This document shows, one piece after another, positions 29,228-64,000 of a stretch of 64,000 bases of DNA. The DNA is from Escherichia phage CMSTMSU. A program made the position numbers and the translations under genes. The stretch lies in the sequence record MH494197.1. The stretch is one strand, 5' to 3'. Each line of letters begins with the position of its first letter. The first letter of the stretch is position 1. A model generated the notes under the pieces. That model saw only the letters and a list, made by a program, of their open reading frames with translations, made no database searches and was not told the origin of the DNA.

Positions 29228-29229
29228 TT

Positions 29230-43957: not shown

Positions 43958-44162
43958 GCTTTTTTCTTTTCCTGATGTGTTTAGTTAAAAGGTATATTAG
44001 TTTTCTGATGTATTCTTCCTGATAGTTTGTTCCTAGGAGTGCAAGAAGTTTTGCTTCAACTAAAGCTAATTGACGTTCTTCGAATGTGTGTTCCAGTATG
44101 TACTTTGGGTTTGATTTTTAGATATTGCACTATTAGTTTTCATTACAATCTTATGATATTCA

Positions 44163-44420
44163 TTAACTGTTAGGATTTTTAAATTCTTGAGCATGTACCT
44201 TTTCCTTTATAGAGAATTTAAGATATCGAAGCATACTTTCAATGTAATACTCTTGTCTGTCAGTTCCAAGAAAGTACAGGAGTTGAATGTATAAAACTTC
44301 TGCACTCCTTTCGGCATGTGACTTGTTTGTGTCGTTTGGAAGTTGATTTGTAAGTTTTCTGGATTTAATTAATCGTTCTTTTAACTCATCGTCTGTTAAG
44401 TATATCATTTCATTTTGCAT
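44163..44420 (-). CDS. family B paralog
   Basis: core FLGTDRQEYYIESML; N-terminus near-identical to 44457..44645. Confidence 0.45.
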   Translation of the reverse strand: MQNEMIYLTDDELKERLIKSRKLTNQLPNDTNKSHAERSAEVLYIQLLYFLGTDRQEYYIESMLRYLKFSIKEKVHAQEFKNPNS

Positions 44421-44456
44421 TTACTTTTTCCATAATAGTAATTTTGAGATATTTAA

Positions 44457-44645
44457 TTATACGTTCAATGTGATACTTTGCCTATCAGTTCCAAGAAGGT
44501 ATGGTAATGACTGGAATAAAACTTCTGCACTCCTTTCTGCTGGGGTTTGGTTTGGGTCATTTGGAAGTTTATTTGTAAGTCTTTTGGATTTATCTAGTCT
44601 TTCTGTTAACTCATCATGTGTTAAGTATATCATTTCATTTTGCAT
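44457..44645 (-). CDS. family B paralog, C-terminally truncated
   Basis: MQNEMIYLTHDEL... ends right after LLGTDRQ. Confidence 0.4.
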   Translation of the reverse strand: MQNEMIYLTHDELTERLDKSKRLTNKLPNDPNQTPAERSAEVLFQSLPYLLGTDRQSITLNV

Positions 44646-44881
44646 TTAATGTTCCTTACGTAAATTGTCTGGATTAAAAGTGAAATCCATTTTTCTACAT
44701 ATTGGTTTTGATACTGTGTGCCTAAAAGACTCTGCATTTTAAACTCTTCTTCGAGTGCATATCTCGTTTCTATAGTAAAGCTTAAATGACCATATTCTTT
44801 ATCGTATCTTCTCAGTGCTTCCCCAATTCTATCAAATCTTTCTGCTATTCTGATGTTATTAATTTTATTCATCGCATTCAT
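44630..44881 (-). CDS. family B paralog
   Basis: core LLGTQYQNQYVEKWI. Confidence 0.45.
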   Translation of the reverse strand: MNAMNKINNIRIAERFDRIGEALRRYDKEYGHLSFTIETRYALEEEFKMQSLLGTQYQNQYVEKWISLLIQTIYVRNIKCKMK

Positions 44882-46465: not shown

Positions 46466-47587
46466 TGTTTATTCCATTCTTTTTGGCCCTCTGGGTTTTA
46501 TATTGGATTTGGTTTCTTAATGCTGATAAGTATCGTTGAATGAACAGATCTTGATAGTTTGTTCCAATGAATTTCATAAGATAAAGTTCACCGTTGATAA
46601 CATCCACTTCAGGTGCACCATATAAGGCATTGTTTTTCTAAGGGCATGGATTAAAGAGAATAGGGCAGTTTGATACTCAACTCCTGATAAAGTCTTCATG
46701 TTTTGTGAGCCAATAATCATCTAGTTTATCCTGTATAACATTCATTAATTGTTCGACATATTCTGTGCAAAACTTATCTTGATATTGAGTCCCATAAAGT
46801 ACAGCAACCATAGCTCATTAACTTTAGCTCGCATTTGGTTCCATGTAAGGCTGGGGTCATCGTAGACTATCCTTGCTATAGGGTTAGTTTACGGACTATA
46901 GTTTCATATTCATCTAGTGTTAAGTGTTTCATTTACATTTGTCCCTTATTAGATCAGTGAGGGCAACTATGTGTGCAACAACATACTCTTCCTGAAAGTT
47001 CGTCCCAGTACAGCCATCATGCGTATATCGGTGGTGTTTATCCTGTGTTCCCTTACACATAAACCTTCTGTGTGAGGAAGTGTAAAATATTTGTTTATTG
47101 CAGCAATGATAATTTTATTCTTCTCGGAATTACTTAAATGTTTCATAGTTTGCTCTTAATGTATTTCTGGAGTGCAATTATATACTCATTCAAGAAGTGC
47201 TCTGATAATCTGTGCCGAGGAATGCACCCAATAGTATATCATTTTCCAATACTAATGCTAAGTTCAAATCATCAGTCTCTTCATATACTATGAGAATTTC
47301 AAGTTGTCTGGCAGCGACGCGTTCGGTATATTGATTTGAGTTTGCAATGATATTCATAGTTTACTCTTTATGTAATTCTTGAGTGCAATTAAGTATTCCC
47401 CTACATAATACTCCTGAAAGTCTGTATCCAAAAATGCACCCATAAGTAAATCTTTTTCTAATACCCTTGATAAGTTAAGGTCTGCATTTGAAAGGTATAT
47501 AAGTAAGATTTCACCCTGTGCGGAATTGAAACGTTTCTTATATTCTTCTGGTGTTAAAAAATCATAGTTTACTCTTAATATCTTCTA

Positions 47588-47770
47588 TTAAAAATGAATC
47601 CAATCGTCAACATACTCTTCCTGATGGTTTGTGTTCAGTACAGCCAACATGCGGATCTCTGCTCTTGCAACTTGGATTTCAGTTTTAGAAAGGTCTTTGC
47701 TGATATCAAACATTAAGTCCATGTATTTCAAGATAAGACCGAATGATTGGGTTCGTGTTATAGTTTTCAT
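47588..47770 (-). CDS. family B paralog
   Basis: core VLNTNHQEEYVDDWI. Confidence 0.4.
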   Translation of the reverse strand: MKTITRTQSFGLILKYMDLMFDISKDLSKTEIQVARAEIRMLAVLNTNHQEEYVDDWIHF

Positions 47771-47967
47771 TGTTTCCTCGTGGACAATATTTCATTTTTC
47801 AATGCATCCATATATTGAATCACCCATCTTCCCTGATAGCTTGTTCCCAATGTAATCAAAAGGTATAACTCAATTCGTTCTAAGTTTGTGTCTGTGTTAT
47901 AAATCTTTACCATGTTTTTACGTAACAGTTCTTGATAATCTTCTTTATTTAAAATACGCATTTTCAT
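47767..47967 (-). CDS. family B paralog
   Basis: MKMRILNKEDYQ start; core TLGTSYQGRWVIQYM. Confidence 0.45.
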   Translation of the reverse strand: MKMRILNKEDYQELLRKNMVKIYNTDTNLERIELYLLITLGTSYQGRWVIQYMDALKNEILSTRKQ

Positions 47968-48161
47968 AGTCTACCTTTTATGTCCCTTCGTAATTCTTGT
48001 AAGTATAGTTCGATATACTTTTCTTGATAGTTAGTTCCTATGAAAAGTTTCATAACCAATTCACGCTTATATGCAATACCACGGATATGTGACATATGTA
48101 GGATATATGCCATGTTGGATATGAGTGTGTGGTTGTGCTCTTCTTCAGTTAAAATACGCAT
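47964..48161 (-). CDS. family B paralog
   Basis: MRILTEEEH start; core FIGTNYQEKYIELYL. Confidence 0.45.
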   Translation of the reverse strand: MRILTEEEHNHTLISNMAYILHMSHIRGIAYKRELVMKLFIGTNYQEKYIELYLQELRRDIKGRL

Positions 48162-48877
48162 AGGGACTCCATTAAAAATAATATCAATCCCATAATATAC
48201 GATTCATATAAAAGTCAATAACATTTTATTCGTAATACCCTTTATCGAAGTCGCTAAGGTTACCCGCCCTTTAGCCCCTACGCATTTTGCCATAGTCCAA
48301 TCCTTTTATTCATAAAAGTCAAGGGATTACCTATGCATTTTTTAACGCTGAAGTTTAAAAATGCCTTGACTTTTTATGATTCAGTACTAAATCCTTTTAC
48401 GCATTAATCCTTCGTTACGCTTACGATTATCTGTGTATCCCCATAGTCCTGCCATACTTCCACGCCAGCCGTCGCCCGGTTAGTCGTGCTGTCATCTGCT
48501 TAATGGTCTTAGGCTTTAGTGGAACCTGTTGCAGTACTGTACGCATAGTATCATCGACGTTATCGTGTACGCCTGCAATAGTGCCTAGGACGCTGTATAC
48601 GTGTATAGAACATATGTATGCCCTCCTGATATAGTTAAGGCCGCTACAAGGCGGCCTATGATGTTTGGTGATGTGTAACGCTTACAGTCCTAAGATAGTG
48701 CGTGCTTCGTTACGTTCCGTGCACAGCTGCATGATGTGAGCAAGTAAGTCCTTGCTAATGTATCCGGTGTTCATAGCTTCACGAATAGATACATCATAAG
48801 CACCGAACCCGTGCGAACGATACGCACATCATTCAGGTTAGTATTATAGATACCGCCGAGATCAACGGCTTCGAATA

Positions 48878-49081
48878 CTACATCAACAGAATATTCATTG
48901 TTGCCATCGTGGAAGTTTTCCAGTGCAATAGTATTGGATACCGCCCAACGTTTGCAGTTTCAATGATGCGGCACTGTTCCGGTTGGATAGTGCCATTACT
49001 TACAGCGTACTCCAGTGCATCTTTACCAAAAGTCCGAGCCAGTACTAAAACGTCAGCGAAGGAAGTGATTGAGAAGGTCAT
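48878..49081 (-). CDS. hypothetical small protein (67 aa), probably continues beyond a frameshift
   Basis: ATG MTFSITSF... with AAGGAG SD directly downstream of a promoter/stem-loop cassette; the track merges it with the upstream gene because no stop intervenes. Confidence 0.4.
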   Translation of the reverse strand: MTFSITSFADVLVLARTFGKDALEYAVSNGTIQPEQCRIIETANVGRYPILLHWKTSTMATMNILLM

Positions 49082-49099
49082 GATAAAACTCCTTAATTT

Positions 49100-49161
49100 A
49101 GGAGGGAGAACCATTTCCTCTCTATGTAAAACATTATACATGAATCTAAGTACTATGCAAG
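49100..49161 (-). promoter_or_regulatory. PeSL-like cassette (promoter plus 5' stem-loop)
   Basis: minus strand TTGCAT - 16 nt - TATAAT, then short hairpin, then SD/ATG. Confidence 0.5.
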
Positions 49162-49164
49162 TAC

Positions 49165-49498
49165 TTTTACATTTTAATACCGGATTCAGGTAGCGGTGAG
49201 ATCCATATTCTGGATCGGTTTCGGTCCAGTACTGTAAATCGATAGTACCTTTCGCGTTAATCTTGTCTACCAGCTTATTCATCTTAGCGTATACTACGTC
49301 AGCATCGATGCGTTTAAAGCCAGTAGCTTTAGTGAAGTAGTAGTGATTTGCTTCACTATCATTAAGGATATACCGAGCACCGTTTGCCGTTTGTGCGATA
49401 ATGATTGAGTATTCTACGTTACGGTCGAGGCCGTCGATGAATACAGAGGAAACATTAGTACGGATGAAAGCTTTAACGATAGCGATTGAAGTAGTCAT
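49165..49498 (-). CDS. hypothetical protein, 3' end unresolved
   Basis: MTTSIAIVKAFIRTN...; reading frame runs through the downstream cassette without a stop. Confidence 0.35.
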
Positions 49499-49587
49499 TT
49501 TGAATCTCCTAACTTTGTGGGCCGTCGCACCATTGCCGCCCTACGAGATACATTATTGCAGTACTGATATACTTTGTCAATACTTTT

Positions 49588-49725
49588 TATTAATAGTTTT
49601 AGTTCCACCAGCAGATAGTTACTCACCGTTATTAACTATATATTTTGGATACACCTATGCACCCTGTGGGCTAGTTTTTGTCTATGCGTATATATAGCAG
49701 GACTGACCGAGTCAATCCCTTTTTA
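49588..49725. repeat. ~130 bp repeated intergenic element, copy 1
   Basis: shares ATGCACCCTGTGGGCTAG ... TATATAGCA(A)GGACTGACCGAGTCAATCCCTTTTT with copies at 52.3, 55.6 and 60.1 kb. Confidence 0.6.
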
Positions 49726-49956
49726 TTCTTTTTGTTAGATGATTCTCCAATCATCAACGATCATGGTAAGATACCGAACCAGTGATTCGAGTGATTCGTG
49801 TTCTCGATAGTCTGCCGCTCCACCAGCGGTACAAGTACAGCCGATTAAGCCGTTTTGTAGTTCCGGATCTTTACGTCGATCTGGTTGGCTTTAGCTTCTT
49901 TCAGTACTTCAACCGGGCGAGAGCGATAGACATAATGTTTTACTCCAAACTATTGG

Positions 49957-50016
49957 CGGGAGAACTATTCCCCGCTCTATGTAAAACATTATACATTACT
50001 GGTTAGTACTGTCAAA
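49957..50016 (-). promoter_or_regulatory. PeSL-like cassette
   Basis: TTGACA - 16 nt - TATAAT on minus strand, hairpin GCGGG...CCCGC just downstream. Confidence 0.55.
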
Positions 50017-50022
50017 TAGTTT

Positions 50023-50280
50023 TTATGAAATATCTTCGATGTAGTCGGCCCATTTCATTTTTTCAGTACTGTCAATGGCTACCGGATTATTTGGATCAAA
50101 CCATTCACCATTACCGCAGTACATACCCACGGCTACGGTTTTATAGCCATCCCGGGCCGCACACCACGACATTGCACGATAGATATGGCCTTTAACTGGT
50201 TGCAGTACTGGTAACGTTTTATGGTCTTCTACGTAGGCCATAGCTTGTGGATTTACCCGATATTGTGTGAACTGTTCCAT
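50023..50280 (-). CDS. hypothetical protein (85 aa)
   Basis: track ORF; promoter-like sequence upstream. Confidence 0.45.
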   Translation of the reverse strand: MEQFTQYRVNPQAMAYVEDHKTLPVLQPVKGHIYRAMSWCAARDGYKTVAVGMYCGNGEWFDPNNPVAIDSTEKMKWADYIEDIS

Positions 50281-50593
50281 TATGTTTCCCCTTGTAGTTA
50301 GTAAAGTTATTACATCAGTACTATCAAGCTATGTCAATAGTACTGAAATAAAACTTTTAGATTAGATTATTGAGGCCGTCAATGGTAGACTCACTTTCTT
50401 CTTTCTCCCATTGTCGGTAGTACTTCCATGCTTCATGATAGGTGGCGATCAGTTCATCTTTTGATCCGGTTACATGCCAGTACTGAATCACGGTGAGCGG
50501 TGTTATAGATAGAATCGAATGATTTCTTCTCTTCTGCCGTTAGCTACTTCCCGCATCAGTTCATCAAAGTTAGCCATTTTATTACTCCTTTTA

Positions 50594-50650
50594 GTGGGGA
50601 GGATATCTCCCTATGCAAAACATTATACTTTGTTTTAGTTATTATGCAAG
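50594..50650 (-). promoter_or_regulatory. PeSL-like cassette
   Basis: TTGCAT - 15 nt - TATAAT; hairpin GGGAG GATAT CTCCC. Confidence 0.5.
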
Positions 50651-50902
50651 TACTTTTTCATATAAACATTAAATTCTACACCGCCGTAACCTTCCACGAT
50701 GATATGTTTTGCGTTATCACGTTTGCACATAGTGAAACCATCGTTTACGTGTTTTGCATTTTCGGGCGACATCACCGATAGCGGCACATACGGCACTAAT
50801 AACAGTATTCCGCAAAGTACTGGTATCATTGGCGGTCATAGTAGTTTGCAGTACTACGTTGTCGTATACGTGTGCATTGATAGTGATTTCGATAGTGTTC
50901 AT
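50635..50902 (-). CDS. hypothetical small protein, frame-shifted
   Basis: ORFs 50717..50902 and 50635..50829 overlap in two frames and look like one gene. Confidence 0.35.
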
Positions 50903-50916
50903 GGTGTATCTCGACT

Positions 50917-50978
50917 GGCGGGAGAACTATTCCCCGCTCTATGTAAAACATTATACGTTAATCTAACTACAATGCAAG
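50917..50978 (-). promoter_or_regulatory. PeSL-like cassette
   Basis: TTGCAT - 16 nt - TATAAT; hairpin GCGGGAGAACTATTCCCCGC. Confidence 0.55.
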
Positions 50979-51233
50979 TACTTTTAAATTTTATTTCCGA
51001 TATAGTCCGGTCTATTCTTTTCGGTCATACGCTTTGCTAATGTTTGCATATGGCTTATTGCTTGTAGTGTATCCTCTTCCGGGATGAATCGAGATAATCA
51101 GGATCATTCTTCACCTTGCAATGATTATGATAGCGTAGTACTGCCAGTACTTTTTAACTTCTTCTACTGTCATAATAAGTACCCACTTCGTTAGCTTTCA
51201 GGTTAGTATCAATCATCAGTGGATTTTTGTAGT

Positions 51234-51440
51234 TCACAAAACGAGTAGTTTTCTCGATAGCGAATCCCATATAATCCAGCTTACTAACAGTACATTCATT
51301 CTTAAAACTTCTTTCGCTGCATCGATGGCTGATTGCATGGATAACCGACCATCTAAATTAATGTTTCCAAATGATCCACCAGCAGAAGTAGGATTACCGT
51401 TCATATCTTTAATGATCATAGTAGCGGAGTAGCTGGACAT
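51234..51440 (-). CDS. hypothetical small protein
   Basis: track ORF 68 aa; AAGGA SD; cassette immediately upstream. Confidence 0.45.
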   Translation of the reverse strand: MSSYSATMIIKDMNGNPTSAGGSFGNINLDGRLSMQSAIDAAKEVLRMNVLLVSWIIWDSLSRKLLVL

Positions 51441-51463
51441 AATTTTGTTTCCTTTTATTGGTG

Positions 51464-51520
51464 TGGGAGAACTATTCTCCCTTGATGTAAACTATTATAC
51501 AGTACTGATATACTTTGTCA
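51464..51520 (-). promoter_or_regulatory. PeSL-like cassette
   Basis: TTGACA - 16 nt - TATAAT; perfect hairpin GGGAGA ACTAT TCTCCC. Confidence 0.6.
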
Positions 51521-51559
51521 AATACTTTTATTCGCCCATATAGATTAGATTATCATCGC

Positions 51560-51930
51560 CTACATAGGATCGCAAACGTTGATTTCTTCGCAGTACTTCG
51601 TGAATACATCGCCATAGTGACCTAAACCACGATCCCAAAACCAGTTCCGTGACCTTCGCGGGTAAGGAACAGATCATGACCAGCTTGCTCATAACCGTAA
51701 TCAATAAACATACCGCGAACTACTTCCAGATCATTACCGTGTTTCTCAATGAAGCGAGAACATGCAATCACTGCCGCTTGATGGGCTTGCTCTGATAATT
51801 CATAATCTTCCGTAATCGCCGTTCTCATTGTGTACAGTACTGAATTGCATAGCTTCAATGTAAGCTACAACCATTGCAGCATGATTTTTATCGTTAGTGA
51901 TGTTCCGAGCGAGATTAGTAGTAGTAGACA
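51560..51930 (-). CDS. hypothetical protein, frame-shifted
   Basis: ATG MSTTTNLARN...; continues in two other frames through ...REGHGTGFWDRGLGHYGDVF... Confidence 0.35.
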
Positions 51931-51951
51931 TGATTTTATTCCTTTTAGTAT

Positions 51952-52009
51952 CGGGGAGAACTATTCTCCCTTGATGTAAACTATTATACAGTACTAATAT
52001 ACTTTGTCA
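51952..52009 (-). promoter_or_regulatory. PeSL-like cassette
   Basis: TTGACA - 16 nt - TATAAT; hairpin GGGGAGAACTATTCTCCC. Confidence 0.6.
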
Positions 52010-52254
52010 ATACTTAATTACGTTTAAAATGATATGTGCCTTTATCATCCTGTACGCCCCATACTGATTTACCATCAACACCAGTGAAGCCGGATTGTAA
52101 TTCAATATGGAAACCATTATTATCAACTACAAAAACTTTTTATTTTCATCCCGATAACATTGATATTCTGAATCAACATTAAAGGCCGCATCATTCAGAA
52201 GATTAGAAGCGTAAATGCAAGTCATTGTAGTCATGATTTTATTCCTTATTGCCG

Positions 52255-52308
52255 TGGAACCGTTCCTCTCGATATAAAACATTATACTTGATTCTAAGTA
52301 TAATGCAA
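52255..52308 (-). promoter_or_regulatory. PeSL-like cassette
   Basis: TTGCAT - 16 nt - TATAAT; hairpin GGAAC C GTTCC, stem sequence differs from other copies but pairing is kept. Confidence 0.55.
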
Positions 52309-52311
52309 GTA

Positions 52312-52446
52312 CTTTTTAAAATAGTTTTCAGTACTGAATACTTATATAATAGATACACTTCCGCACCCTATGGGTCAGTGAGTTATCTCTCAATGGATAT
52401 ATATAGCAAAGGACTGACCGAGTCAATCCCTTTTTAATCTTTTTAT
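52312..52446. repeat. ~130 bp repeated intergenic element, copy 2
   Basis: CGCACCCTATGGGTCAGTGAG...GGACTGACCGAGTCAATCCCTTTTTAATC. Confidence 0.6.
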
Positions 52447-52507
52447 CGTGTTACCTTACTTGCTGCCACATCACGCTTTTTATAGTACTGATTCCAGATA
52501 TTGCTGG

Positions 52508-52825
52508 TTAAACCGTAATCAAGTACTTTAATAAGTCCATTACGATCCCGCCGATATTCTGTTTTCTGATATCTCTTATCGTTAGTGTTGATAATGTATC
52601 ATCGACGTGTTGTAGTGCATCAGCAAAGCGGTGCTGGCGTTCAATGGCATTACGTTTAATATTGTACTTTAATTCATTGCACGCGTTTACGTGCTTTACA
52701 CTGCCTTTACTTGCAGTACTCAACCGATCCATAACGATAAACATATTATCAGGATCGCATAAATGCATATGCACCTTTGCAAAGTACTGTTTCAACTGAG
52801 GGCGGTCATAGTCTAAAAATTCCAT
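52508..52825 (-). CDS. hypothetical protein (105 aa)
   Basis: track ORF. Confidence 0.45.
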   Translation of the reverse strand: MEFLDYDRPQLKQYFAKVHMHLCDPDNMFIVMDRLSTASKGSVKHVNACNELKYNIKRNAIERQHRFADALQHVDDTLSTLTIRDIRKQNIGGIVMDLLKYLITV

Positions 52826-52891
52826 ACCTTACATTCAGTTTCATTTTGTTCGACACCCGCATCACAATTCGCGACCTTAATCACTAACCGA

Positions 52892-53080
52892 TCATTTAAA
52901 GCGAAAACTATACGGGAAGATCCGCCCGATGATCTCCAGTCCAGCTAACCGACAAGCTGAAAGGATCTCTTTGTTGGTTTCCATTTCTGACAGTGTACGG
53001 ATGAATTTAGTATAATTACGCATTGCATGTTCTCCTTGAGTTAATGAAACTATATTACAGTACTTTACTATCAATGGCAA
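52892..53080 (-). CDS. hypothetical small protein
   Basis: track ORF 62 aa. Confidence 0.35.
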   Translation of the reverse strand: MPLIVKYCNIVSLTQGEHAMRNYTKFIRTLSEMETNKEILSACRLAGLEIIGRIFPYSFRFK

Positions 53081-53296
53081 CTACTTTTTAACATTAACGG
53101 CGTGAATCACTTCCTTAGTGTTTTTAGTACTGAATACTTTCGCCGCTCCTTGTTCGACCGTGATACGATAGCGACCATTAACATCAACCATATTAATAAA
53201 GTCCGGCGTGCTGAATGGTGTTGTTTTGCATTTGAGTACTGTTAACAGTTCCACCAGCGATGTAGTTTCTTTGATACGTTTTTCTAAAGTAATCAT
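53081..53296 (-). CDS. hypothetical small protein
   Basis: track ORF 71 aa; promoter-like repeat upstream, also found before the next gene. Confidence 0.4.
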   Translation of the reverse strand: MITLEKRIKETTSLVELLTVLKCKTTPFSTPDFINMVDVNGRYRITVEQGAAKVFSTKNTKEVIHAVNVKK

Positions 53297-53434
53297 TTTG
53301 TTTCTCCCCGTGTTGGTATGTACATATAGTACTAAAACATTTGAGTACTGTCAATTAGATAATATTATATTTCTTAAAATAAAATGCGTCTTGTGTTGGT
53401 TGATACTCGATACCGTTACCGTTATTGACTTCAA

Positions 53435-53629
53435 CTAATAAACCTTTGTCAATAAGTTTTTAATAGTACGATACCCTTGTTGAAAATTGGTAAAATGTGA
53501 ATCATTACGAAAGGTATAACCGTGCTTAACTGCTTCATCAATAGTTTTCTTTTCGATTTTAGATAATTTCATTTTGTTTCTCCCGTGTTGGTATATGTAC
53601 ATAGTACTAAAACATTTGAGTACTGTCAA
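53435..53629 (-). CDS. hypothetical small protein
   Basis: track ORF; likely start at internal MKLSKIEKK with GGGAGA SD. Confidence 0.4.
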   Translation of the reverse strand: MTVLKCFSTMYIYQHGRNKMKLSKIEKKTIDEAVKHGYTFRNDSHFTNFQQGYRTIKNLLTKVY

Positions 53630-53890
53630 CGTGATATTAGTTTTATTTTCTTATTGTATTGTTGATGCTCATAAAGGTTTATCTTTCCTGTGTTCTCGAT
53701 TACTATCCTGTTGTTAGTGTCCACATCGATTACACGCAGTTTCCGTTGCTTAACTTCCGGGTAATAGGTTACCATTAATAAACTCATTAGCAAGCTGTAC
53801 GGCCTTTGTGATGATTCTCTTCGGTGCTTTATAGTGTACCCGTAAGATGTTATCTTTATATAGTTGAACCTTAATCATTTTGTTTGTCCT

Positions 53891-53916
53891 ATAAAAAGGC
53901 GGGAACTGATCCCGCC
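53891..53916 (-). terminator. rho-independent terminator (minus strand)
   Basis: stem GGCGGGA/TCCCGCC, loop ACTGA, followed by U-run in minus transcript. Confidence 0.6.
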
Positions 53917-54423
53917 GTGTTGTTAGTACTGCAAGTTATTAGATAACCGGCGGCGTTTACTGTATACTGTTACACGATTACCCTTACGGTCGTGTCGGAT
54001 CTCTTTCTGGTTGCGAATCAGTTCACTTGGACGCTTAAGGTTTGCCGTGATCCGCGTGAGTCCATGCATTGGCATTTACCTGTACTTTGATATCAGAACC
54101 AGCGATAAACTCATCTTGTGCGTCAGTATTGCCGCCAGCATATCCGCTCGTTTTAGTTCTGCTGCTGTTAGTACTGGCTCAGGTGAATTCACAATATCAG
54201 AGATCTTTGAACTGTACGGCCCAGCGTTGGCCTTTCGGTGCATCTTTGCCCATGTCTTTAAATGCTGCTCCTTCCTCGCGTGCAACAATACGGGCAGCTT
54301 CACGGGTAGCGTAGAATTTAGTAATCATGGTATACATCCTATTAGTTAAGTTAGTACTACAAGTTAGAGTCTATTATAAAGTACTATCTGGGCAATGTCA
54401 AATAGTACTTTAAATGGATTCTA

Positions 54424-54745
54424 TTACATGTCTTTCTTACGTTTTACATCGTGGTAGCGAACTGTTATTTCTTTGTTGATCTCTTCCTCGATGCGGTGAA
54501 TAACTTTTTCTTTCGGGTTGAAACCTATAACGGTTTCTTTAATGATCTCAAGCCCGTGTATTCGCCTTGTGTACCGTAACCGTATGTAAAGGTTTCGTGT
54601 CCCGTGTCTTCCAGCGGTCGCCAATTAACGCAGACACGTAGCAAGAGTGGTAAGTATTGCCGTGTGAATCAGTCCACCGATTAACGTTAATGTCAAAGGA
54701 GGTTACAATTTTCAATTCTACTTTCTGGGCAAGGATCATAGCCAT
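54424..54745 (-). CDS. hypothetical protein, frame-shifted
   Basis: MAMILAQKVELKIV...NVNRWTDSHGNTYHSCYVS; two overlapping track ORFs. Confidence 0.4.
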
Positions 54746-54764
54746 TTTATTTCTCTCTTTTAGT

Positions 54765-54825
54765 TAGGAGGAACCATTCCCTCACTTGATGTAAACTATT
54801 ATACAGTACTAAGATACTTTGTCAA
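54765..54825 (-). promoter_or_regulatory. PeSL-like cassette
   Basis: TTGACA - 16 nt - TATAAT; hairpin in 5' leader. Confidence 0.55.
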
Positions 54826-54843
54826 TACTTATTTTTGGAAAGT

Positions 54844-55008
54844 TTACGCATTAATTCTACGCTTTCTTGTGAACGTTTTGCTACCGGCAAGCTGCATGGG
54901 TAGTAAACATTTTGTATAGTCTGACGCTTTGCCACCGAACCGAGCGGCACGTTCACGGGCACTTGGAACTAATACTATTTCTTTCTTGCAGATAGTGCAC
55001 TTAGCCAT
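54844..55008 (-). CDS. small Cys-containing protein (54 aa)
   Basis: MAKCTICKKEIVLVPSARERAARFGGKASDY...; own cassette upstream. Confidence 0.4.
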   Translation of the reverse strand: MAKCTICKKEIVLVPSARERAARFGGKASDYTKCLLPMQLAGSKTFTRKRRINA

Positions 55009-55027
55009 TTTATTTCTCTCTCTTTGT

Positions 55028-55089
55028 TAGAGGGGAACCGTTTCCTCACTCGATGTAAACTATTATACAGTACTAAGATACTTTGTCAA
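55028..55089 (-). promoter_or_regulatory. PeSL-like cassette
   Basis: TTGACA - 16 nt - TATAAT; hairpin GGAA ACGG TTCC. Confidence 0.55.
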
Positions 55090-55093
55090 TACT

Positions 55094-55366
55094 TAATTAT
55101 TGTAAATGTCGTGAATAGTGATAAAGTTTTTACGACCGTAAACCTGCAAATCAATATCAATGTAGTGCTTATCTAGTACATCCTCGACGCTTAACGCGGT
55201 GTCGTGGATATCTTCGTAGAATTGAGTATCTACAATCTTGCTTAAGTCATCCGGCGTTAACTCATCGTTAAGCAGTTGAACCGCCGGATATCTGCTTCAC
55301 GTTTCCAGTCTTCCAGTTAGTAGTCAGTACTTGTTCGATTTCGTTAGCTGTCAGTAGAATCCGCAT
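55094..55366 (-). CDS. hypothetical protein, frame-shifted
   Basis: MRILLTANEIEQVL... then ...LLNDELTPDDLSKIVDTQFYEDIHD... in another frame. Confidence 0.35.
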
Positions 55367-55547
55367 TTTTATGTTTCCTTATCAGTGGTTGATGTAAGTA
55401 TTATACTCGTTTACTTTCTATTGTCAAACTATTTTATCAGGGAGTTTTTCGTATGTCTTACTCGACTACTTAACGGGGTTACTTGTTTCGTTCCCCGTCC
55501 TGATGTAAAACATTATACTTGATTCTAAGTACAATGCAAGTACTTTT

Positions 55548-55670
55548 TAAAAATAGTTTTCAGTACTAGCCACCAGCAAACAATAGATACATTTATGCAC
55601 CCTGTGGGCTGATTTGTTTCTATGCGTATATAATAGCAAAGGACTGAATCCCTTATTCAATTATTTTTAA
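55548..55670. repeat. ~130 bp repeated intergenic element, copy 3
   Basis: ATGCACCCTGTGGGCTGA...TATAATAGCAAAGGACTGAATCCC. Confidence 0.55.
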
Positions 55671-55816
55671 ACTTCTTTCGGGTTGCGATAGGTGATAGCG
55701 TTCGGGTACATTTGTTTAATGTTATTCCATGCCCGGTTGACATTGTAACCACTTGATCGAATCAGTTGGTTACTACCGACACCTTGAAACACTACTTCGA
55801 ATAAGAATTCTTTCAT
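55668..55816 (-). CDS. small hypothetical protein (49 aa)
   Basis: MKEFLFEVVFQGVGSNQLIRSSGYNVNRAW... Confidence 0.3.
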
Positions 55817-56286
55817 GCTTTCACCTCGCGATCTGCTTTACCTTTACGCCGACATTACTAATTGTTCGCGTTGCCATAAGTCGAGTGATACAAAAGTTTT
55901 GCGGTATCACTTTTAGGATACTCGCCATTAGTACCTAACCGATAAAACAGATCTTTCAGTACTGATAATTCTACTTGGATCATTATACTTTCTCTTTGTT
56001 GGGAGGGAACTATTCTTCCGATATAAAACATTATACACTTTATTCAGTACAAGTACTTTTAATCTTTCAGCCAATGATCCTGAATGAATTTTTCACCGGA
56101 ACCTTGCTGCATTGATTGTAACAGACGTTCACGATGAGCGGCGGCGAATTGCTCAGTACTATGCGTTACACCGGTTGATATCTGGATTCACCATTGGGGC
56201 TGATGTATTGTACATCCCACGGTTTTTCGTTAGTATCAGACCATTTACGAACGATTAGTTGACCTTGCATTTTTCTTTCTCTTAGT

Positions 56287-56346
56287 GGGGAGAATCATTT
56301 CTCCCCTTCATGTAACTTATTATACAGTACTAGATTATCTTGTCAA
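56287..56346 (-). promoter_or_regulatory. PeSL-like cassette
   Basis: TTGACA - 16 nt - TATAAT; perfect 8 bp hairpin GGGGAGAA TCAT TTCTCCCC. Confidence 0.6.
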
Positions 56347-56351
56347 TAGTT

Positions 56352-56636
56352 TTATTCACCTTGTTTGAATTTAGTTTTCTCCATTGATTCCATGATTGCA
56401 ACCAATACGCCGTGGATCTCGCTTAACGCGGAATCACTAAAAGCATTAATGAATAGTCGATCATTCTCGCGAATATTTTTAATGTACTTTTCAGCAGTAG
56501 TTGCGAATTCATTCAACGGTAGATCAAATGCTTTATCCCATGATGGATGGCGTAATTGTAACAGTACTGGATTATCACGATCACGGGAAAACGTACCAGT
56601 GATGAAACATACGCCCGAATACTTTCGAACTGGCAA
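56352..56636 (-). CDS. hypothetical protein (94 aa)
   Basis: track ORF. Confidence 0.45.
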   Translation of the reverse strand: MPVRKYSGVCFITGTFSRDRDNPVLLQLRHPSWDKAFDLPLNEFATTAEKYIKNIRENDRLFINAFSDSALSEIHGVLVAIMESMEKTKFKQGE

Positions 56637-56959
56637 CGGACTTCCTTTGTGATAGTAGTATGAATGTACATTTATTGTTATCCTCTATTAAATTAATATT
56701 ACAGTTTATGAATCAATTCTTTATCTAAGCGATAGCGTACATTATTAATAGTAACGGCATTGTTTTAATGCTACGCTGTACAGGTCCACCAGCAATAACA
56801 AATGTTGCTTTATTACCCCGAACAATGATAGCACTTCCGTGATTACCGAAATCATCTTGTACTAAAATACTTGATAAGTTTTCCATTTTATTTCTCTTAG
56901 TAGGGAAGATGTTTCCTTGATGTAAGTACTATAACAGTACTGAAAACTAATTGCAAGTA

Positions 56960-57313
56960 CTATGATAAAATCATGATAGGATATTCACTATCGATCAGTA
57001 CCTCGAATCCGAACCCTTCGTACCATTCTTTAAGATTAAAGGCGTTATCTTCTCCGTATCGCATTCTAAGATGATACAATCTGAATCATCAGCGGCATCG
57101 ATAAAGGCATTCATTAATTCGTTACCTTCACCATTGCCCCGACTATCAGGATCAACATAAAGAGAATCAATGAAAGCAACACGGTCATAATCAAGATCCG
57201 GTGCAATGATTCCACGTTTAACAAACCAGTACTGCAATTGTGCTACTTTGCTGTACCTGATAACCAGTGATCTCGCCATTGTCAGTAGTACGCGTGATAT
57301 GTTGTATTCCCAT
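56960..57313 (-). CDS. GNAT-family N-acetyltransferase-like small protein, frame-shifted twice
   Basis: acetyl-CoA-binding motif ...VDPDSRGNGEGNELMNAFIDAA... and C-terminal ...EWYEGFGFEVL... readable across three frames. Confidence 0.5.
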
Positions 57314-57962
57314 GATTTCTATCCTCAGTTAAGATATAAAACATTATACACTATCTTTCAGTACTGTCAATTACTTTTATCTCATAGATCTATGCCAACA
57401 ATTACGCGGATCTCTTTAAAAGTACTATCATGATCCTCCGGCAAGTAATACAATACATGCACCTATAACGGCCCGGCGTCGATTCTCAGGGATTTTACCG
57501 CCGCAGTCGAGGCAATGTACAGTGATTCTCTTTGTGCGTTAATTTGCTTTCTAGCGTGGTTAACGGCGGCCTGAATCACTGCGTTAATCTCGTCTTGTTC
57601 GGCCCCGTCTTTCGCGAATCCTACAGCCATTATTTTAACCTCATTATAAAAATACTATAGTACTGTAATGCTACAATAATACTACTAGTGCTAATCTTAT
57701 TCAAACCACATGATACTACATATCCACCAGCATTACCACGGATAGTAACGCCTTTGTACTGTCTATATAAATTCAACTGCGTATATTGCCTTTGATCAAG
57801 AATTGATCAGAATTATACGCCTTATGCTAAATTGATCCAGTACTTTTGATCATTTATTGATCGATGTTATATAGTTACATTTGTGCACCCTATGGGTTAG
57901 TGACGTTCTCGTCTTGATGTAAGTATTATGCCAGTACTGGAGGATATTGTCAATAGATTATT

Positions 57963-58160
57963 TTAATTTTTTCTATCATTAATTAATGCTTTCAGTACTA
58001 TACTAATAACTTGCAATGATTCATCAATGACAATGAAATTATTCTCTTTCATTAGATGATAGTTACCATTGATTGTATATTCTAACGAGTACTGTTTACG
58101 TTTAATTTTTGATAATGTTTCTATTTGTTTTTGTACTGATTTCATGCTAATCATTGTCAA
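57963..58160 (-). CDS. hypothetical small protein
   Basis: track ORF 65 aa. Confidence 0.35.
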   Translation of the reverse strand: MTMISMKSVQKQIETLSKIKRKQYSLEYTINGNYHLMKENNFIVIDESLQVISIVLKALINDRKN

Positions 58161-58983
58161 ACGTCCTGTAACGCATTCTAACGAGATAAACGGTTGAGTA
58201 CTGGCATTGTATAGGGTAATGATTAAAGCCCACCAGCGTTAACCAGTGGGCTATAATCTTACATCTTGCGGATAATCTTAACAGTATCTTTCACCGATTT
58301 ACCGTTTTGCTGACATTGCTCGATCATCGCGTATTGTTCTGCGGTCAGATCCTCGCCAGTTTTTGCCAGTACTGCGTCGATGAATGAATCCAGTGCGATC
58401 ATTTTGTTTCTCTCTTAGGTTAAGTTAACTACTGTTTATAAAACTTATTATACAGTACTATCAAACTATGTCAATAGTACTGGTAATATATTTTAGCGGT
58501 AGTCGTCGTATGCTTTATTCACGGCGAATATAACTTTCAAAGGCTTCGTCTACCGTTTCATACTCCCGAACATAATCACCATATGAAACTACATACATAC
58601 CTTTTGATCTTCAAACGTCATGATGATAGAATCCAGACCAACGATTTCAGTTTTTGCGATGATAGCCATTTTTAATTCCTTAGTAGTGTAGTTGATAAAA
58701 GTTATTATGTCAGTACTATCAAACTATGTCAATAGTACTGTGATAATATTTTAGTTAATGATAGTCAGTGTAAAATTGTAATCCCCTGCCCGTATAGTAC
58801 TTTATCGCCGAACGTTCCAACACGTTTCATATTGCAATAGATACCCATAACACTTTTACATCTTTGATATTCCGAACGCCAGTAATATCCTTGTTTAAAT
58901 GATCGTGATCAGAAAATAAAACTTGTTTTGCATTTTTCAGTACAGTGCAGATATTAGCCATTTTGTTTTCTCTTCTGTTAGTG

Positions 58984-59041
58984 GGGAGAAGTTTTTCTCC
59001 CTTGATGTAAACTATTATACAGTACTATAATCTATTGTCAA
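58984..59041 (-). promoter_or_regulatory. PeSL-like cassette
   Basis: TTGACA - 16 nt - TATAAT; hairpin GGGAGA AGTTTT TCTCCC. Confidence 0.6.
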
Positions 59042-59414
59042 ACTATTTTTTATATTATTCGAAATCTTCTGGACCGGACTGATAATCATCTTCACCGTAT
59101 GCACTTTCTAACCGCTCGCCAGTGCAATCATCAGTTAGTGAGTCATCCTCATAGTTCACGTCTACGCCAGTGATGTAAAACTGGCTATCGTCTGGATCAT
59201 TGAAATTAATTTTCTGGATGTTTACAATAACTGTATTGATGCCGTGACACCGCCATCAGCCGTTACAAAGTACTGATATTTTTCACAACCGCCTGAATTG
59301 AAACCGTAATTAATTTCGGCCCGACCATCACTTAAACGCAGTGTCTGAGCGATGATTTCATTTTCAAAGTTAGATTGAGCAATTGCAATAGTCATGATTT
59401 GTTTCTTATTATCA

Positions 59415-59471
59415 GGGAAACCGTTTCCCTTTCGATGTAAAACATTATACGCTTATCAGGAAGTAATGCAA
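59415..59471 (-). promoter_or_regulatory. PeSL-like cassette
   Basis: TTGCAT - 16 nt - TATAAT; hairpin GGGAAA CCG TTTCCC. Confidence 0.55.
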
Positions 59472-59957
59472 GTACTATTTCACGTTAATTTCAAAGTACT
59501 GCTCTTTGATGTTTTCCTGTTGGTAAATCTCGTTTAATGCTTTAAGATCTAAAACCTGTTTACCTGCTGCCTGAATATACTTTTAAGAGTCGCTAACAGC
59601 TTCTCAGGCGTGTTTGTAGTCTTACGTGTTGGGATCTTATCGTGCCCCATAGCGTAGTACTGCTTACGTGCTATAGTACTGATAACACTGCGGTACGGTT
59701 CCATGATCAGCTTGTCTGTATTCGTCGCTATCCCCAAACTTCATACCGTGGATCGCAAAGGTCATCATCATGCGGTCGTTATCGCGGATATTGTGGGGCA
59801 GTCGGCAAGCTCGCGAGTCAGTGACATAGTGATCCCCACGTCGCCACCCAGCGGTAAAGGTCGGGCGATAAAGAAACCGTTAGGGAATACTTTCAGGAAG
59901 TTTTCTTGAACTGCTGCGACGAATTCGATGCTATTCATAATTCATTTCCTTAATTAG

Positions 59958-60015
59958 TGGGGAAGTTGTTTCCTCTTGATGTAAAACATTATACGCCTAT
60001 TGAGATAGTTTGCAA
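59958..60015 (-). promoter_or_regulatory. PeSL-like cassette
   Basis: TTGCAA - 16 nt - TATAAT; hairpin GGAA GTTGT TTCC. Confidence 0.5.
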
Positions 60016-60032
60016 GTACTTTCTACAAATAC

Positions 60033-60160
60033 TTTTAAAATAGTTTTCAGTACTCAATACTCATATAATAGATACACTTATGCACCCTGTGGGCTAGTGA
60101 GCTATCTCTCAATGAATATATAATAGCAAAATGGCTGACCGAGTCAACCACTTTTTCATT
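60033..60160. repeat. ~130 bp repeated intergenic element, copy 4
   Basis: ATGCACCCTGTGGGCTAGTGAGCTATCTCTCAATGAATATATAATAGCAAAATGGCTGACCGAGTCAACC. Confidence 0.6.
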
Positions 60161-60271
60161 TATTTTAGCTTTTAGAATCGCCGCCTTTCGCGTCATGCCT
60201 TGCTTGATGTATTCTGTACTTTCGCTTTACGTGCATTCGCTTTATTTGCTTTCGTAAACGCCGAACAACTT

Positions 60272-60580
60272 TTATAGTTTAAACCTGTTGGATTCATTTA
60301 AATCACCATAAAGAATAGATAGGTTACTAACAACGCCGCGATCAATGCACCGACCGAACTGTAATAAGCTAATGATCTCATTTTTAGCCTGAAAATAATG
60401 TTTAATTTGAGCGGCGGTCAGTGCACAATTACGCAGGAAGTTTTCTGTATAACTTTTGCGAGTACTGAAAGAGAATTGACCTTTGCTGCTGCCGATAGTA
60501 ACATCAAACCGAGCGTTGTATTGTTTCATTTTGTTTCTCCTGTTATTGGGGAGAATCATTTCTCCCTTCATGTAAAACAT
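60272..60580 (-). CDS. hypothetical protein
   Basis: track ORF 102 aa; probable start at internal MKQYNARFDV. Confidence 0.4.
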   Translation of the reverse strand: MFYMKGEMILPNNRRNKMKQYNARFDVTIGSSKGQFSFSTRKSYTENFLRNCALTAAQIKHYFQAKNEIISLLQFGRCIDRGVVSNLSILYGDLNESNRFKL

Positions 60581-60605
60581 TATACAGTACTAAAACTAAT
60601 TGCAA
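60548..60605 (-). promoter_or_regulatory. PeSL-like cassette
   Basis: TTGCAA - 15 nt - TATAAT; hairpin GGGGAGAATCATTTCTCCC, identical to copy at 60771. Confidence 0.55.
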
Positions 60606-60770
60606 GTACTATTTTTAGATTTACGCAAACTTTCTACCATCTCAGGAGTAAGGTCTGCGGGTAGGAAACTACTTCATCAACGAAACGTAAAGGAATACCC
60701 CAGCGAAAGGTGAACGTGCTTTCTTAGTATTACTCTTTTTGATGCTTTCATTTCATATTCTTAATTAGTG

Positions 60771-60827
60771 GGGAGAATCATTTCTCCCTTCATGTAAAAC
60801 ATTATACGCGTTTAAAACTAATTGCAA
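60771..60827 (-). promoter_or_regulatory. PeSL-like cassette
   Basis: TTGCAA - 15 nt - TATAAT; hairpin GGGGAGAATCATTTCTCCC. Confidence 0.55.
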
Positions 60828-61691
60828 GTACTATTTGAAAGTAAATGCTCATACGCTACATTAACTACGTTTTCAATAACCGACTGTACAGAAAGATCCC
60901 CACTTCCGGCTATAGTAGAAATCGCTTACAGTAGTGTCATCGTATGCAAATACTTTACCGTGACTGCATCAATCACATACATATTAACCTTTAAGATGTC
61001 GATCTTATCCTGTACAGTAAGCATATTAATTAACCTTTTAAGTACTGACTTAAGTAATCTTGTTGATCTTCGGTGATTGCAGCCATCTTCCCTAGTACTG
61101 GATTAATGATATAATCCCTGTAACGTCCTGTAACGCATTCTCAGGCGGTTTAACGGCTGGGGTAGCCATAGCCATTGCCGACTTGTTCGACGCTGTAACG
61201 CTCATAAAGGCGGCATTCTTCCGGTGTTAACATAGCATCAATGCGTTTCATTGGTTTAATGATGCTTTCGATCTCATTCAGTACTTGATTAACGTTCATG
61301 GTATAATCCCAATATAAGCGGCCTAAATCGACCGCTAACGATGTTTTGATTAATAGGTGTATGGTTGACGTTCAAACAATGATTGCACGTTGTACGCCCC
61401 GCTTATGGGCTTTGCTGGTAAATCAATTTTATATTGTTCACGCTTAAAGATAATAAAACGGCAATTGTTTTAACATCAAAATTGATTGAACGTTCCGAGT
61501 TTACCATCGTGCACAAATACAAGATAACCGCTCGCTACTTGTTTTGTAGTACTGGTTGCAACCATAGACCGCCGAACATGTGTACCTGCGTCGATTAAAG
61601 TACTGATATTTTTCATTTTACTATCCTCTTAAGTTGATTTAATTTCTTTCCCTATGCAGACACTGTACCAAAGTATCTGCATAAAGTAAAG

Positions 61692-62013
61692 CTAATTAAA
61701 GATCTTTTTACGTTTTACATCCTGTACAGTACAATGCAACGGGATAGACAAATCATTGCACAAACGATAGAGGGAGGTTTCATCAGTATTAAGCCCGTCT
61801 ACTGATTCCTTTAAGAGAGATAACGCCGTTTGTTGGTATGCATCTTCATAGCCATAAGTAAATGATTCAACCGCCAGATCATTCAAGCCGTTATCCAGTT
61901 CGACGCTTACATGACAAGAATGATGTATTGCCATATGAATCAGACCAACGTTTACCGTCAACATTGATTGCACGGATTGCAGCCGAAACGGTGTTAATGA
62001 TAGTTTTAGCCAT
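61692..62013 (-). CDS. hypothetical protein, frame-shifted; paralog of 54424..54745
   Basis: MAKTIINTVSAAIRAINVDGKRWSDSYGN then ...HHSCHVSVELDNG...; shares RW-x-DS-x-GN-x-YHSC-x-VS with 54424..54745. Confidence 0.4.
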
Positions 62014-62263
62014 TTTAGTATTCCTTAAATTAATATGTGTCGTCTTGATAAAATCTATTATGCCAGTACTATCAAACTATGTCAATAGTACTGTGATAAT
62101 ATTTTTACTTACTTTTTGCTTTCTTTATTGCTTCCACCGGTCGGCCCATTCTTTACCCCATACTTGTAAATTATAATGGTACTGGCAAAGTGCAACGCCC
62201 CGCTTTAAACCAGTAATAGATTTTTACCACATTGACAAGTTTTCATTTTAGTTTCCTTGTAGT

Positions 62264-62321
62264 GGGAGAACCATTTTCCCCTTGATGTAATGTATTATAC
62301 TTTATTCGATTTACTTTGCAA
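62264..62321 (-). promoter_or_regulatory. PeSL-like cassette
   Basis: TTGCAA - 16 nt - TATAAT; hairpin GGGAGAACCATTTTCCC. Confidence 0.5.
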
Positions 62322-62338
62322 GTACTTTTTAATTTAAT

Positions 62339-62551
62339 TCATCCGTAAAGGATACGCTCAACGCCCAAATCAGTTAAACTAATCGACGGCACTTGATAGG
62401 TTTCAATGTATGCTACACTTGCCCACTGACCGAACTCATTAACGGCCGTATTCATTGCATTTTGCAATTCCACACCTTCCTTGTTGGTAATGACTGCAAC
62501 TACTTGTTCGTTGCCAGTAGTACCAGATACGCGAGTAATGATAATAGCCAT
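62339..62551 (-). CDS. hypothetical small protein
   Basis: track ORF 70 aa. Confidence 0.4.
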   Translation of the reverse strand: MAIIITRVSGTTGNEQVVAVITNKEGVELQNAMNTAVNEFGQWASVAYIETYQVPSISLTDLGVERILYG

Positions 62552-62986
62552 TTTTTAATTCCTATTCAGTAGTTGATGTATGTATTATGCCAGTACTTAA
62601 AACTATTGTCAAACTATTTTTAAAGTTTATCAATGATTGATGCCGTTTCATTGATAGTCTTGCCGTGTTTTGCACACGCGATAACTGCTTTAAATTCCTT
62701 TGATGACCAATCTTTCTTACTGCATACTGACATTACTTGTAAAGTAAAACAATCCAGTTCATAAGTATTCATCTTTATATCCTCAGTTAGTTAAGGTGTC
62801 TGCCTTGATGTAATTAATTATACGCTAATCTCTTAATCGTGCAAGTACTTTTATTACTTTTTGCAAAATACTTTAAACGCTCTCAATCGCATTACAACGA
62901 CCTTAACGCCACCAGCTAGGCAATGCATCAGATAATCAGTTTAAAGCGTTAGAATCGTTTCTAGGCGGTGCTGGTGGCGTAAACGA

Positions 62987-63015
62987 TAAAAAAAGCCCAC
63001 CGTTTAAGGTGGGCT
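62987..63015 (-). terminator. rho-independent terminator (minus strand)
   Basis: 8 bp GC-rich stem AGCCCACC/GGTGGGCT, loop GTTTAA, followed by 7 U in minus transcript; 13 nt downstream of stop at 63028. Confidence 0.7.
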
Positions 63016-63027
63016 AGTGATTCAGTT

Positions 63028-63406
63028 TTATGCTTCAACTTTGCGATGAGCTTCGATCCATTCCTCGCGAGTCATACCACTGGAGTTAATCGCGTCCAGT
63101 ACTACCGCAATGCAGTTACCACGCACCGGAATCAGATATTCTTCCCGTTGTACTACCGCTACGCGTTCCTGAATCCATTTTTGGCTTTTACTTCTGGCTT
63201 GTCTTCCCATACTTAACCGCCGTGGCTTTTGTGCCATCTCTGTAACTACTTCCAGATCCAACTACTGCCGCCTGAATACTTTCGATTGTTGCTTGTAGTT
63301 CTGCTTCACGGGCCGCCTTTGCCGCTTCAATTTCTGCCGCTTTATTTGCTTGTAGTTCTTTCGCAGTACTGTAAGCGATGTTAAAATTATTGCGTACCGC
63401 TTTCAT
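63028..63406 (-). CDS. hypothetical protein, frame-shifted
   Basis: overlapping ORFs 63188..63406 (Ala/Glu-rich, coiled-coil-like) and 63028..63261. Confidence 0.35.
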
Positions 63407-63690
63407 GGTATCGTTATCCAGTTCAGCCGGATCTCAGCCGCGACGTTAGTTTCATTTGCACCAGTGCTTTGATGAATGATTTTACATTAGCCATTTTATA
63501 AATCCTCAATTAAAGTTTAGTTTACGTTTATTAGTGTATCAAAGTTTTCTGACGTGTCCAGTTTTTCGTTCGACTTACTGGCGGTCTACTTAGTGCTCCC
63601 CGTCTTGATGTAATACATTCTACGCCTTTTTGCGGTAATGTCAACTACTTTCTTAAAACTATTTTCAAAGTATCTCAGTACTACGATACT

Positions 63691-63717
63691 ACAAAACAAA
63701 AAGCCCACCCGTGGGCT
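63691..63717 (-). terminator. rho-independent terminator (minus strand)
   Basis: stem AGCCCAC/GTGGGCT with U-rich tail in minus transcript. Confidence 0.55.
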
Positions 63718-64000
63718 GTATTAATCAGTAAGTAAAATATTAAACACTTTACCATTTAACGTTATTGGTGCACTGCTACCGTGCTCAAGATCCGTTAGTA
63801 TACCTGCAATCGCTTTATCATTGGCGACCTTTCCAGTGTCCAACAGTACGACAGTACTGATAAGATTAACGCTCGTTTCAATATCATAATGCACGGCGTT
63901 AAGGAGTTGTGTATACTGCTTTCGTTAAGTAAAACTATTCGTGCTGTCATGATGTACCCGTAGTATCTATCAACGGCAATTAATAACGCCGGAATGCGTT

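Follow-up and report, generated by a model that had tools for sequence, protein, structure and literature searches.

The GNAT toxins of the AtaT, TacT, ItaT, and KacT types are full-length GNATs, and their genes lie beside the gene for a DUF1778/RHH antitoxin. Other GNATs are encoded by phages. AcrVA5 (PDB 6IUF), an anti-CRISPR GNAT of 92 amino acids, inactivates Cas12a by acetylation (bioRxiv 10.1101/2021.11.16.468554). Another precedent is Rac of the phiKMV phages, and jumbo-phage GNATs have been predicted to work similarly (PMC7552054, PMC7824862). In T4-type phages, small genes undergo modular shuffling through PeSL (promoter-early stem-loop) cassettes: each cassette has a strong sigma-70-like promoter, in many cases together with a stem-loop, the cassettes lie on either side of small genes that are not essential, and the junctions of gain and loss fall inside the cassettes (PMC2839356). 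In the Rak2-like phage CBB, RpoD-like promoters with UP-like elements precede short ORFs and continue into the terminal repeat, and this promoter region has been read as an early host-takeover region (PMC5259590).

Here, we compare a GNAT gene of Escherichia phage CMSTMSU with these systems. The window that we analyzed is a 64,000-nt stretch of sequence record MH494197.1, and the gene spans exactly positions 56960-57313, on the minus strand. The gene is already annotated in Asteriusvirus, with its function uncharacterized; described orthologues include gp295 of phage 121Q (YP_009101882.1) and g031 of phage fEgEco12 (XBS49113.1). We conclude with considerable confidence that this 118-aa GNAT gene is intact, conserved, and accessory in 121Q-like jumbo coliphages, and that its frameshifts in the CMSTMSU record are an artifact of an unpolished nanopore assembly.

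Reading frames of the acetyltransferase gene

As recorded, the coding sequence (56960..57313, minus strand) is 354 nt long, from an ATG at 57313..57311 to a TAG that ends at 56960. It is covered by three overlapping minus-strand ORF fragments in three frames (57313..57218, 57279..56995, and 57079..56960). Jointly, these fragments hold the peptides ...VDPDSRGNGEGNELMNAFIDAA... and ...EWYEGFGFEVL..., which an earlier note on this DNA had quoted in proposing a GNAT protein of roughly 115 aa translated across three frames. Each of fEgEco12, JNE01, and 121Q has the gene as one intact ORF of 357 nt that encodes 118 aa. Relative to every relative examined, the window has two deletions within the gene, both in runs of G. 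At 57251..57252, GGG has become G (ACAGGGCAAA in relatives versus ACAGCAAA in the window), and at 57055..57056, GGG has become GG (GATACGGGAGAA in relatives versus GATACGGAGAA in the window). In a four-way DNA alignment of the window, fEgEco12, JNE01, and 121Q, the second break appears as a change from GATACGGGAG to GATACGGAG, and the window has an extra deletion (GGGG to GG) directly downstream of the gene. To repair the gene, we put GG between 57252 and 57251 and G between 57056 and 57055, which gives the 357-nt ORF. The repaired protein has 118 aa and matches acetyltransferase models in Pfam (see below), so the proposal of a small GNAT spread across three frames is borne out.

The repaired protein is identical to that of fEgEco12 and is encoded without any change by 18 Asteriusvirus records, which share 92-96% DNA identity with the window at this locus. 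After the repair, the gene differs from that of fEgEco12 at 10 nucleotides and from that of JNE01 at 6, and every one of these changes is synonymous; compared with 121Q, 28 codon differences are synonymous and 6 are non-synonymous. Since the protein is 100% identical in these 18 records despite the divergence of the DNA, and since the differences are mostly synonymous, the gene is under strong purifying selection in this lineage. More broadly, a megablast search with the surrounding 1.1 kb matched 41 phage records at 89-96% identity, nearly all of them 121Q/PBECO4-like Asteriusvirus, and many of these records label the spot as "acetyltransferase" or "GNAT family N-acetyltransferase." The CMSTMSU gene is the same gene as 121Q gp295 and fEgEco12 g031: the repaired protein is 95-100% identical to theirs, the neighbors, the promoter, and the position in the terminal repeat are alike, and the sole difference is the three bases that are absent from the CMSTMSU record.

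Homopolymer errors that are biased to deletion are a known signature of unpolished nanopore assemblies. When the whole 64-kb window was compared with the fEgEco12 region that is syntenic to it (94.7-98.6% identity), deletions of 1-2 nt in the window outnumbered insertions by 348 to 5. The loss of bases rises with the length of the run: 0.16% of 1-mers are affected, as are 6% of 4-mers, 32% of 5-mers, and 80-86% of 6- and 7-mers. The same polarity of deletions to insertions is seen against JNE01 (36:0), 121Q (32:2), and PBECO4 (29:6); among the relatives themselves, gaps are few and about symmetrical. The window has just 13 ORFs of at least 150 aa, versus 42 in the syntenic relative. Genes that flank the acetyltransferase gene carry similar breaks. 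In particular, the upstream neighbor (57377..57630, minus strand), which encodes a DksA/TraR-type C4 zinc finger protein (PF01258; 85 aa in relatives), has four 1-nt deletions in the window, and the downstream neighbor (56699..56886, minus strand), which encodes a hypothetical protein of 62 aa, has a 1-nt deletion. Apart from the cluster of intact orthologues, just one near-identical protein was found, CMSTMSU protein P0002 (80 aa, "UNVERIFIED_ORG"), and its C-terminal tail (...ECDTEKITPLILKNGTKGSDSRY) is the exact out-of-frame read-through of the middle fragment. A look-up by the exact sequence of this fragment gave no contig, so in the analysis it is the shared frameshifted peptide that ties the window to CMSTMSU. 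The phage was sequenced by MinION R9.4 (FLO-MIN106), with base-calling by Albacore 2.1.3 and assembly by Canu, and the publication describes no polishing step (PMC6256653). Attributing the breaks to sequencing rests on comparison with relatives and on this published method; the CMSTMSU reads are deposited in the SRA (SRP158495).

We also considered whether the breaks might be real. If the gene were a genuine pseudogene in this isolate, with two real deletions, then it would fit that both breaks lie in runs of just three bases, where the sequencing error rate is a modest 1-4% per run, and that the gene is dispensable within the genus (see below). However, the neighboring genes are all broken alike, the 348:5 bias towards deletion is window-wide and steep with homopolymer length, and beyond the three absent bases, the gene has only synonymous differences from fEgEco12 and JNE01. 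Furthermore, the assembly method is known to yield exactly this pattern of errors. The local deletion rate is about 1% per base (about 162 events in the last 16 kb), which predicts about 3-4 errors in 357 nt; two are seen. The three-frame layout by itself might instead suggest programmed ribosomal frameshifts, but all of the relatives with an intact sequence that we found have the protein in one frame, and genes across the window share this type of break. There was also no slippery heptamer at either of the two frame-break sites. Because the indels are window-wide and one-directional, and because the sequencing method is published, we rejected both explanations: a pseudogene is very unlikely, and we give programmed frameshifting almost no credence. 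Thus, the three-frame layout is a sequencing artifact of record MH494197.

The rate of deletion varies along the window. In short runs, it is 3-4 times higher at 48000-64000 than at 1-48000 (for 3-mers, 3.7% versus 1.0%), and the change at about 48000 matches the projected edge of a direct terminal repeat of about 21.5 kb. A poorer consensus at the end of the contig or a mis-collapsed repeat are possible reasons for the higher rate. Since the window is an unpolished draft with deletions at about 0.4-1%, apparent frameshifts, pseudogenes, and multi-frame proteins elsewhere in it are suspect and should be treated as artifacts until they are compared with relatives.

Promoter, putative early region, and gain or loss of the gene

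The gene is preceded by a consensus sigma-70 promoter, TTGACA-N16-TATAAT (57343..57370, minus strand), which matches at 12 of 12 hexamer positions. An A-rich stretch lies before it, and GTACTG lies directly after the -35 hexamer. A Shine-Dalgarno sequence, GAGGA (57322..57326, minus strand), is found 8 nt before the ATG. The earlier note had given the gene its own promoter, and as a sequence feature, this holds. The next gene has a weaker promoter of its own, TTGCAA-N17-TATAGT (56928..56956, minus strand), which begins 4 nt past the stop codon of the acetyltransferase gene.

Promoters of this kind are concentrated on one strand of the window. Sites that match the consensus at 11 or more of 12 positions number 32 on the minus strand versus 3 on the plus strand, where shuffled sequences predict about 4 on both strands combined, and 18 of the near-consensus minus-strand promoters lie within the last 16 kb. 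Most of the sites have a common layout: AAAAGTA, TTGACA, N9, AGTACTG, TATAAT, a stem-loop (TTTACATCAAGGG...CCC), a Shine-Dalgarno sequence, and ATG. Most of the neighboring promoters are followed by a GC stem-loop, but the leader of the GNAT promoter lacks one. The repeated promoter element precedes many small genes on the minus strand at 47000-64000 (for instance, at 59041, 58474, 56346, 55089, 54825, 52010, 51521, and 50015). Separately, displaced secondary BLAST matches of 70-90% identity occur at 29000-32300, 37400-38300, 44100-44650, and 51400-55700, and these point to arrays made up of small paralogous genes or of repeated leaders within the early region.

In phage vB_Ec-M-J, the orthologous gene is located at 12.7 kb, within the annotated 21.5-kb direct terminal repeat. 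Given the consensus promoter, the location in the terminal repeat, and the precedent of phage CBB, it is a reasonable inference that the GNAT gene would be expressed early.

The gene is absent from about half of the Asteriusvirus records, and is therefore dispensable. Among the megablast records, it is missing from those of PBECO4, slurp01, BF17, and several Salmonella phages. PBECO4 retains the junction (at about 1800-1900 of the retrieved locus): the -35 element of the GNAT promoter (TTGACAGTACT) runs straight into the spacer and -10 element (TATAGT) of the next promoter. About 420 nt are gone, as compared to positions 56928-57370 of the window, and the junction is at or beside a shared CAGTACT motif. 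Judging from the sequence, what remains is a functional-looking hybrid promoter. The GNAT gene is accessory and resides in a module of about 420 nt, bounded by promoters, that is either present or absent, with the promoter of the next gene as its right-hand boundary. The sequence for the DksA/TraR-type protein is kept in both PBECO4 (where it is unannotated) and BF17 (where it is labeled DksA), both of which lack the GNAT gene, so the two genes are not obligately linked.

A copy of the gene is also present in Shigella phage SF1-1, which has a genome of 146 kb and Phapecoctavirus-type relatives. This copy is 96% identical in protein. In all of the roughly 200 related records, at most 72% of the SF1-1 locus is covered, and the fullest matches are in two pieces, with about 420 nt absent. 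The insert (1390-1960 of the retrieved locus) begins at the -10 hexamer and carries the next AAAAAGTATTGACAGTACTG promoter along with a stem-loop leader, and both this promoter and this leader are of the Asteriusvirus type. That the module is in SF1-1 alone, and not in about 200 Phapecoctavirus-like relatives, implies a recent transfer between unrelated groups of coliphages. A more distant homologue, at 47% identity, is found in Klebsiella phage 05F01.

In sequence, the module resembles the PeSL cassettes in its 12/12 promoter, in the fusion of -35 and -10 elements in PBECO4, and in the insertion that starts from the -10 hexamer in SF1-1. It differs in that it belongs to another group of phages and in that the GNAT leader lacks a GC stem-loop.

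While comparing these loci, we noticed some doubtful labels. Four 146-kb records of "Campylobacter phage" (MG065639 and others), with Campylobacter jejuni as the host, are about 85% identical to the SF1-1-type coliphage locus, and phage ZYD, which is filed as Vequintavirus, matches Phapecoctavirus-type phages. These may be labeling or contamination issues in the public records.

Protein family and candidate targets

The repaired protein passes the gathering cutoffs of three Pfam models: Acetyltransf_1 (PF00583, 37.2 bits with a cutoff of 20.7), Acetyltransf_7 (PF13508, 33.5 bits with a cutoff of 27), and Acetyltransf_10 (PF13673, 26.3 bits with a cutoff of 23.6). PHROGs also assigns it to acetyltransferase families. 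The profile matches span residues 40-110 or so, which is the acetyl-CoA half of the fold. The models in NCBIfam that gave any match were those for RimI, ArsN, and AAC(6'), all far below threshold, so no specific function can be assigned from them, and PADLOC had no match to the protein.

The frame-corrected sequence keeps the acetyl-CoA-binding motif (R-x-x-G-x-G) on which the earlier note had staked its claim. This motif A loop, R59-G-N-G62-E-G64, is encoded at 57128..57145 (minus strand), and in a PDB sequence search, it aligned to RGHGIG of phosphinothricin acetyltransferase 1YR0. It fits the Q/R-x-x-G-x-G/A consensus of the pyrophosphate-binding loop that follows strand beta4 in GNATs. Across an alignment of 53 homologues, G64 never varies, and conservation of R59 and G62 is 90% or more. 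Y99 is also invariant, and R59, G62, L83, D86, F93, W98, F104, P113, and M115 are nearly so. Y99 is in the helix before the last strands and is the putative general acid. The N terminus has a conserved motif that is specific to the family, GS-x-GY-V...EQ..NW.

When 1.84 billion cluster representatives were searched exhaustively with HMMER, 290 relatives were found (E ≤ 1e-3), mostly stand-alone proteins (117-140 aa) with end-to-end alignments. These distant relatives came from the exhaustive search; when 5.8 billion proteins were searched by word index, nothing beyond the two clusters of the family itself came up. AlphaFold2, when run on the 53-member alignment, gave a confident model (pLDDT of 91.2 and pTM of 0.84), with the elements in the order beta-hairpin, helix, beta4, alpha3, beta5, alpha4, beta6, and beta7. 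As modeled, the fold is a minimal GNAT core with a much-reduced N-terminal arm. Overall, profile scores above threshold, the motif A loop, and the predicted alpha/beta fold place the protein in the GNAT superfamily. Fold searches of BFVD and the PDB returned only generic or unannotated GNATs, which indicate no substrate.

One distant member of the family has a different architecture. On metagenome contig k141_231909 (4479-5789 of the retrieved locus), the mini-GNAT is part of a 436-aa fusion with PARP-like and ParB_N domains. The fusion adjoins two ART-PolyVal proteins and a tRNA synthetase, and the contig is phage-like. This looks like a polyvalent-protein conflict locus.

What might the enzyme acetylate? 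The earlier note had pointed to GNAT toxins, and a toxin of the AtaT/TacT/ItaT type would acetylate aminoacyl-tRNA and arrest the host's translation. The CMSTMSU protein is small, stands alone as a GNAT, and is encoded by a mobile genome, it shares the GNAT fold and the acetyl-CoA motif with these toxins, and AtaT and ItaT are among its many GNAT matches in Foldseek. But its likeness to AtaT/TacT-type toxins is no greater than to any other GNAT. It differs from them in its N-terminal architecture and in size (118 aa versus about 160-175 aa for the toxin domain), and a PDB sequence search found no toxin-antitoxin toxins at E ≤ 10. No DUF1778 antitoxin is encoded among the neighbors, which are the DksA/TraR zinc finger protein, unannotated small proteins, and a DUF7247 protein. 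Also, one promoter precedes the GNAT gene and another precedes the next gene downstream, unlike the single operon of a toxin-antitoxin system. Because of the protein's size, the lack of an antitoxin neighbor (DUF1778 or RHH), the separate promoters, and the absence of specific similarity, we rejected membership in the AtaT/TacT/ItaT/KacT group; that the protein nevertheless acts in this way is extremely improbable. Of the earlier interpretation, the small GNAT with a promoter stands, and the comparison to AtaT/TacT-type toxins does not.

The substrate might instead be a small molecule, such as an antibiotic-like compound, a polyamine, or a metabolite, in which case this would be a detoxifying or metabolic accessory gene. 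The best characterized matches by sequence are acetyltransferases for phosphinothricin, aminoglycosides, streptothricin, and puromycin, and one phage record labels the gene as PaiA-like. However, these matches are far under the family-specific cutoffs (for instance, 20 bits versus 86-380) and are confined to the acetyl-CoA half of the fold, which is generic. The family has a conserved N-terminal motif of its own, and relatives are found in phage polyvalent-protein contexts, which also argue against this view. A small-molecule substrate is possible, but we consider it doubtful.

We tentatively favor the acetylation of a protein. The host's sigma-70 RNA polymerase would transcribe the GNAT gene directly after the DNA enters the cell, and the enzyme would transfer an acetyl group from acetyl-CoA to an amine of a host protein, or possibly of a phage protein, to the phage's advantage, as for Rac and AcrVA5. 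We suggest this because of the minimal, AcrVA5-like architecture, the PARP/ParB_N fusion beside ART-PolyVal proteins, and the precedent of Rac. In its predicted structure, the CMSTMSU protein resembles AcrVA5, a likeness that is not specific, as the uncharacterized small GNATs 1Y9W and 2G3A match equally well or better. The PDB sequence search, with a limit of E ≤ 10, gave no match to AcrVA5, and a sequence-family relationship between the two is thus not detectable. To our knowledge, the E. coli hosts do not carry Cas12a, and therefore the target must differ from that of AcrVA5. As for Rac, the comparison is by description: both are phage-encoded stand-alone GNATs that are, or would be, expressed while the host's polymerase still serves, and they differ in host, type of phage, and size.

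More speculatively, the minimal phage GNATs of this family (about 290 clusters, with the motif GS-x-GY...EQ..NW, and with some members in injected polyvalent proteins) might acetylate a specific host protein of defense or transcription right after infection. The gene might also spread between unrelated coliphages as a mobile early-gene module bounded by promoters, with recombination at a shared early-promoter sequence carrying it from Asteriusvirus into a Phapecoctavirus-like Shigella phage. We consider this combined scenario unlikely. The gain, loss, and transfer of the GNAT gene at promoter boundaries are an example of a known mode of phage mosaicism. If it is true that the GNAT modifies a host factor, then it would be one more case of a known class, alongside Rac and AcrVA5.
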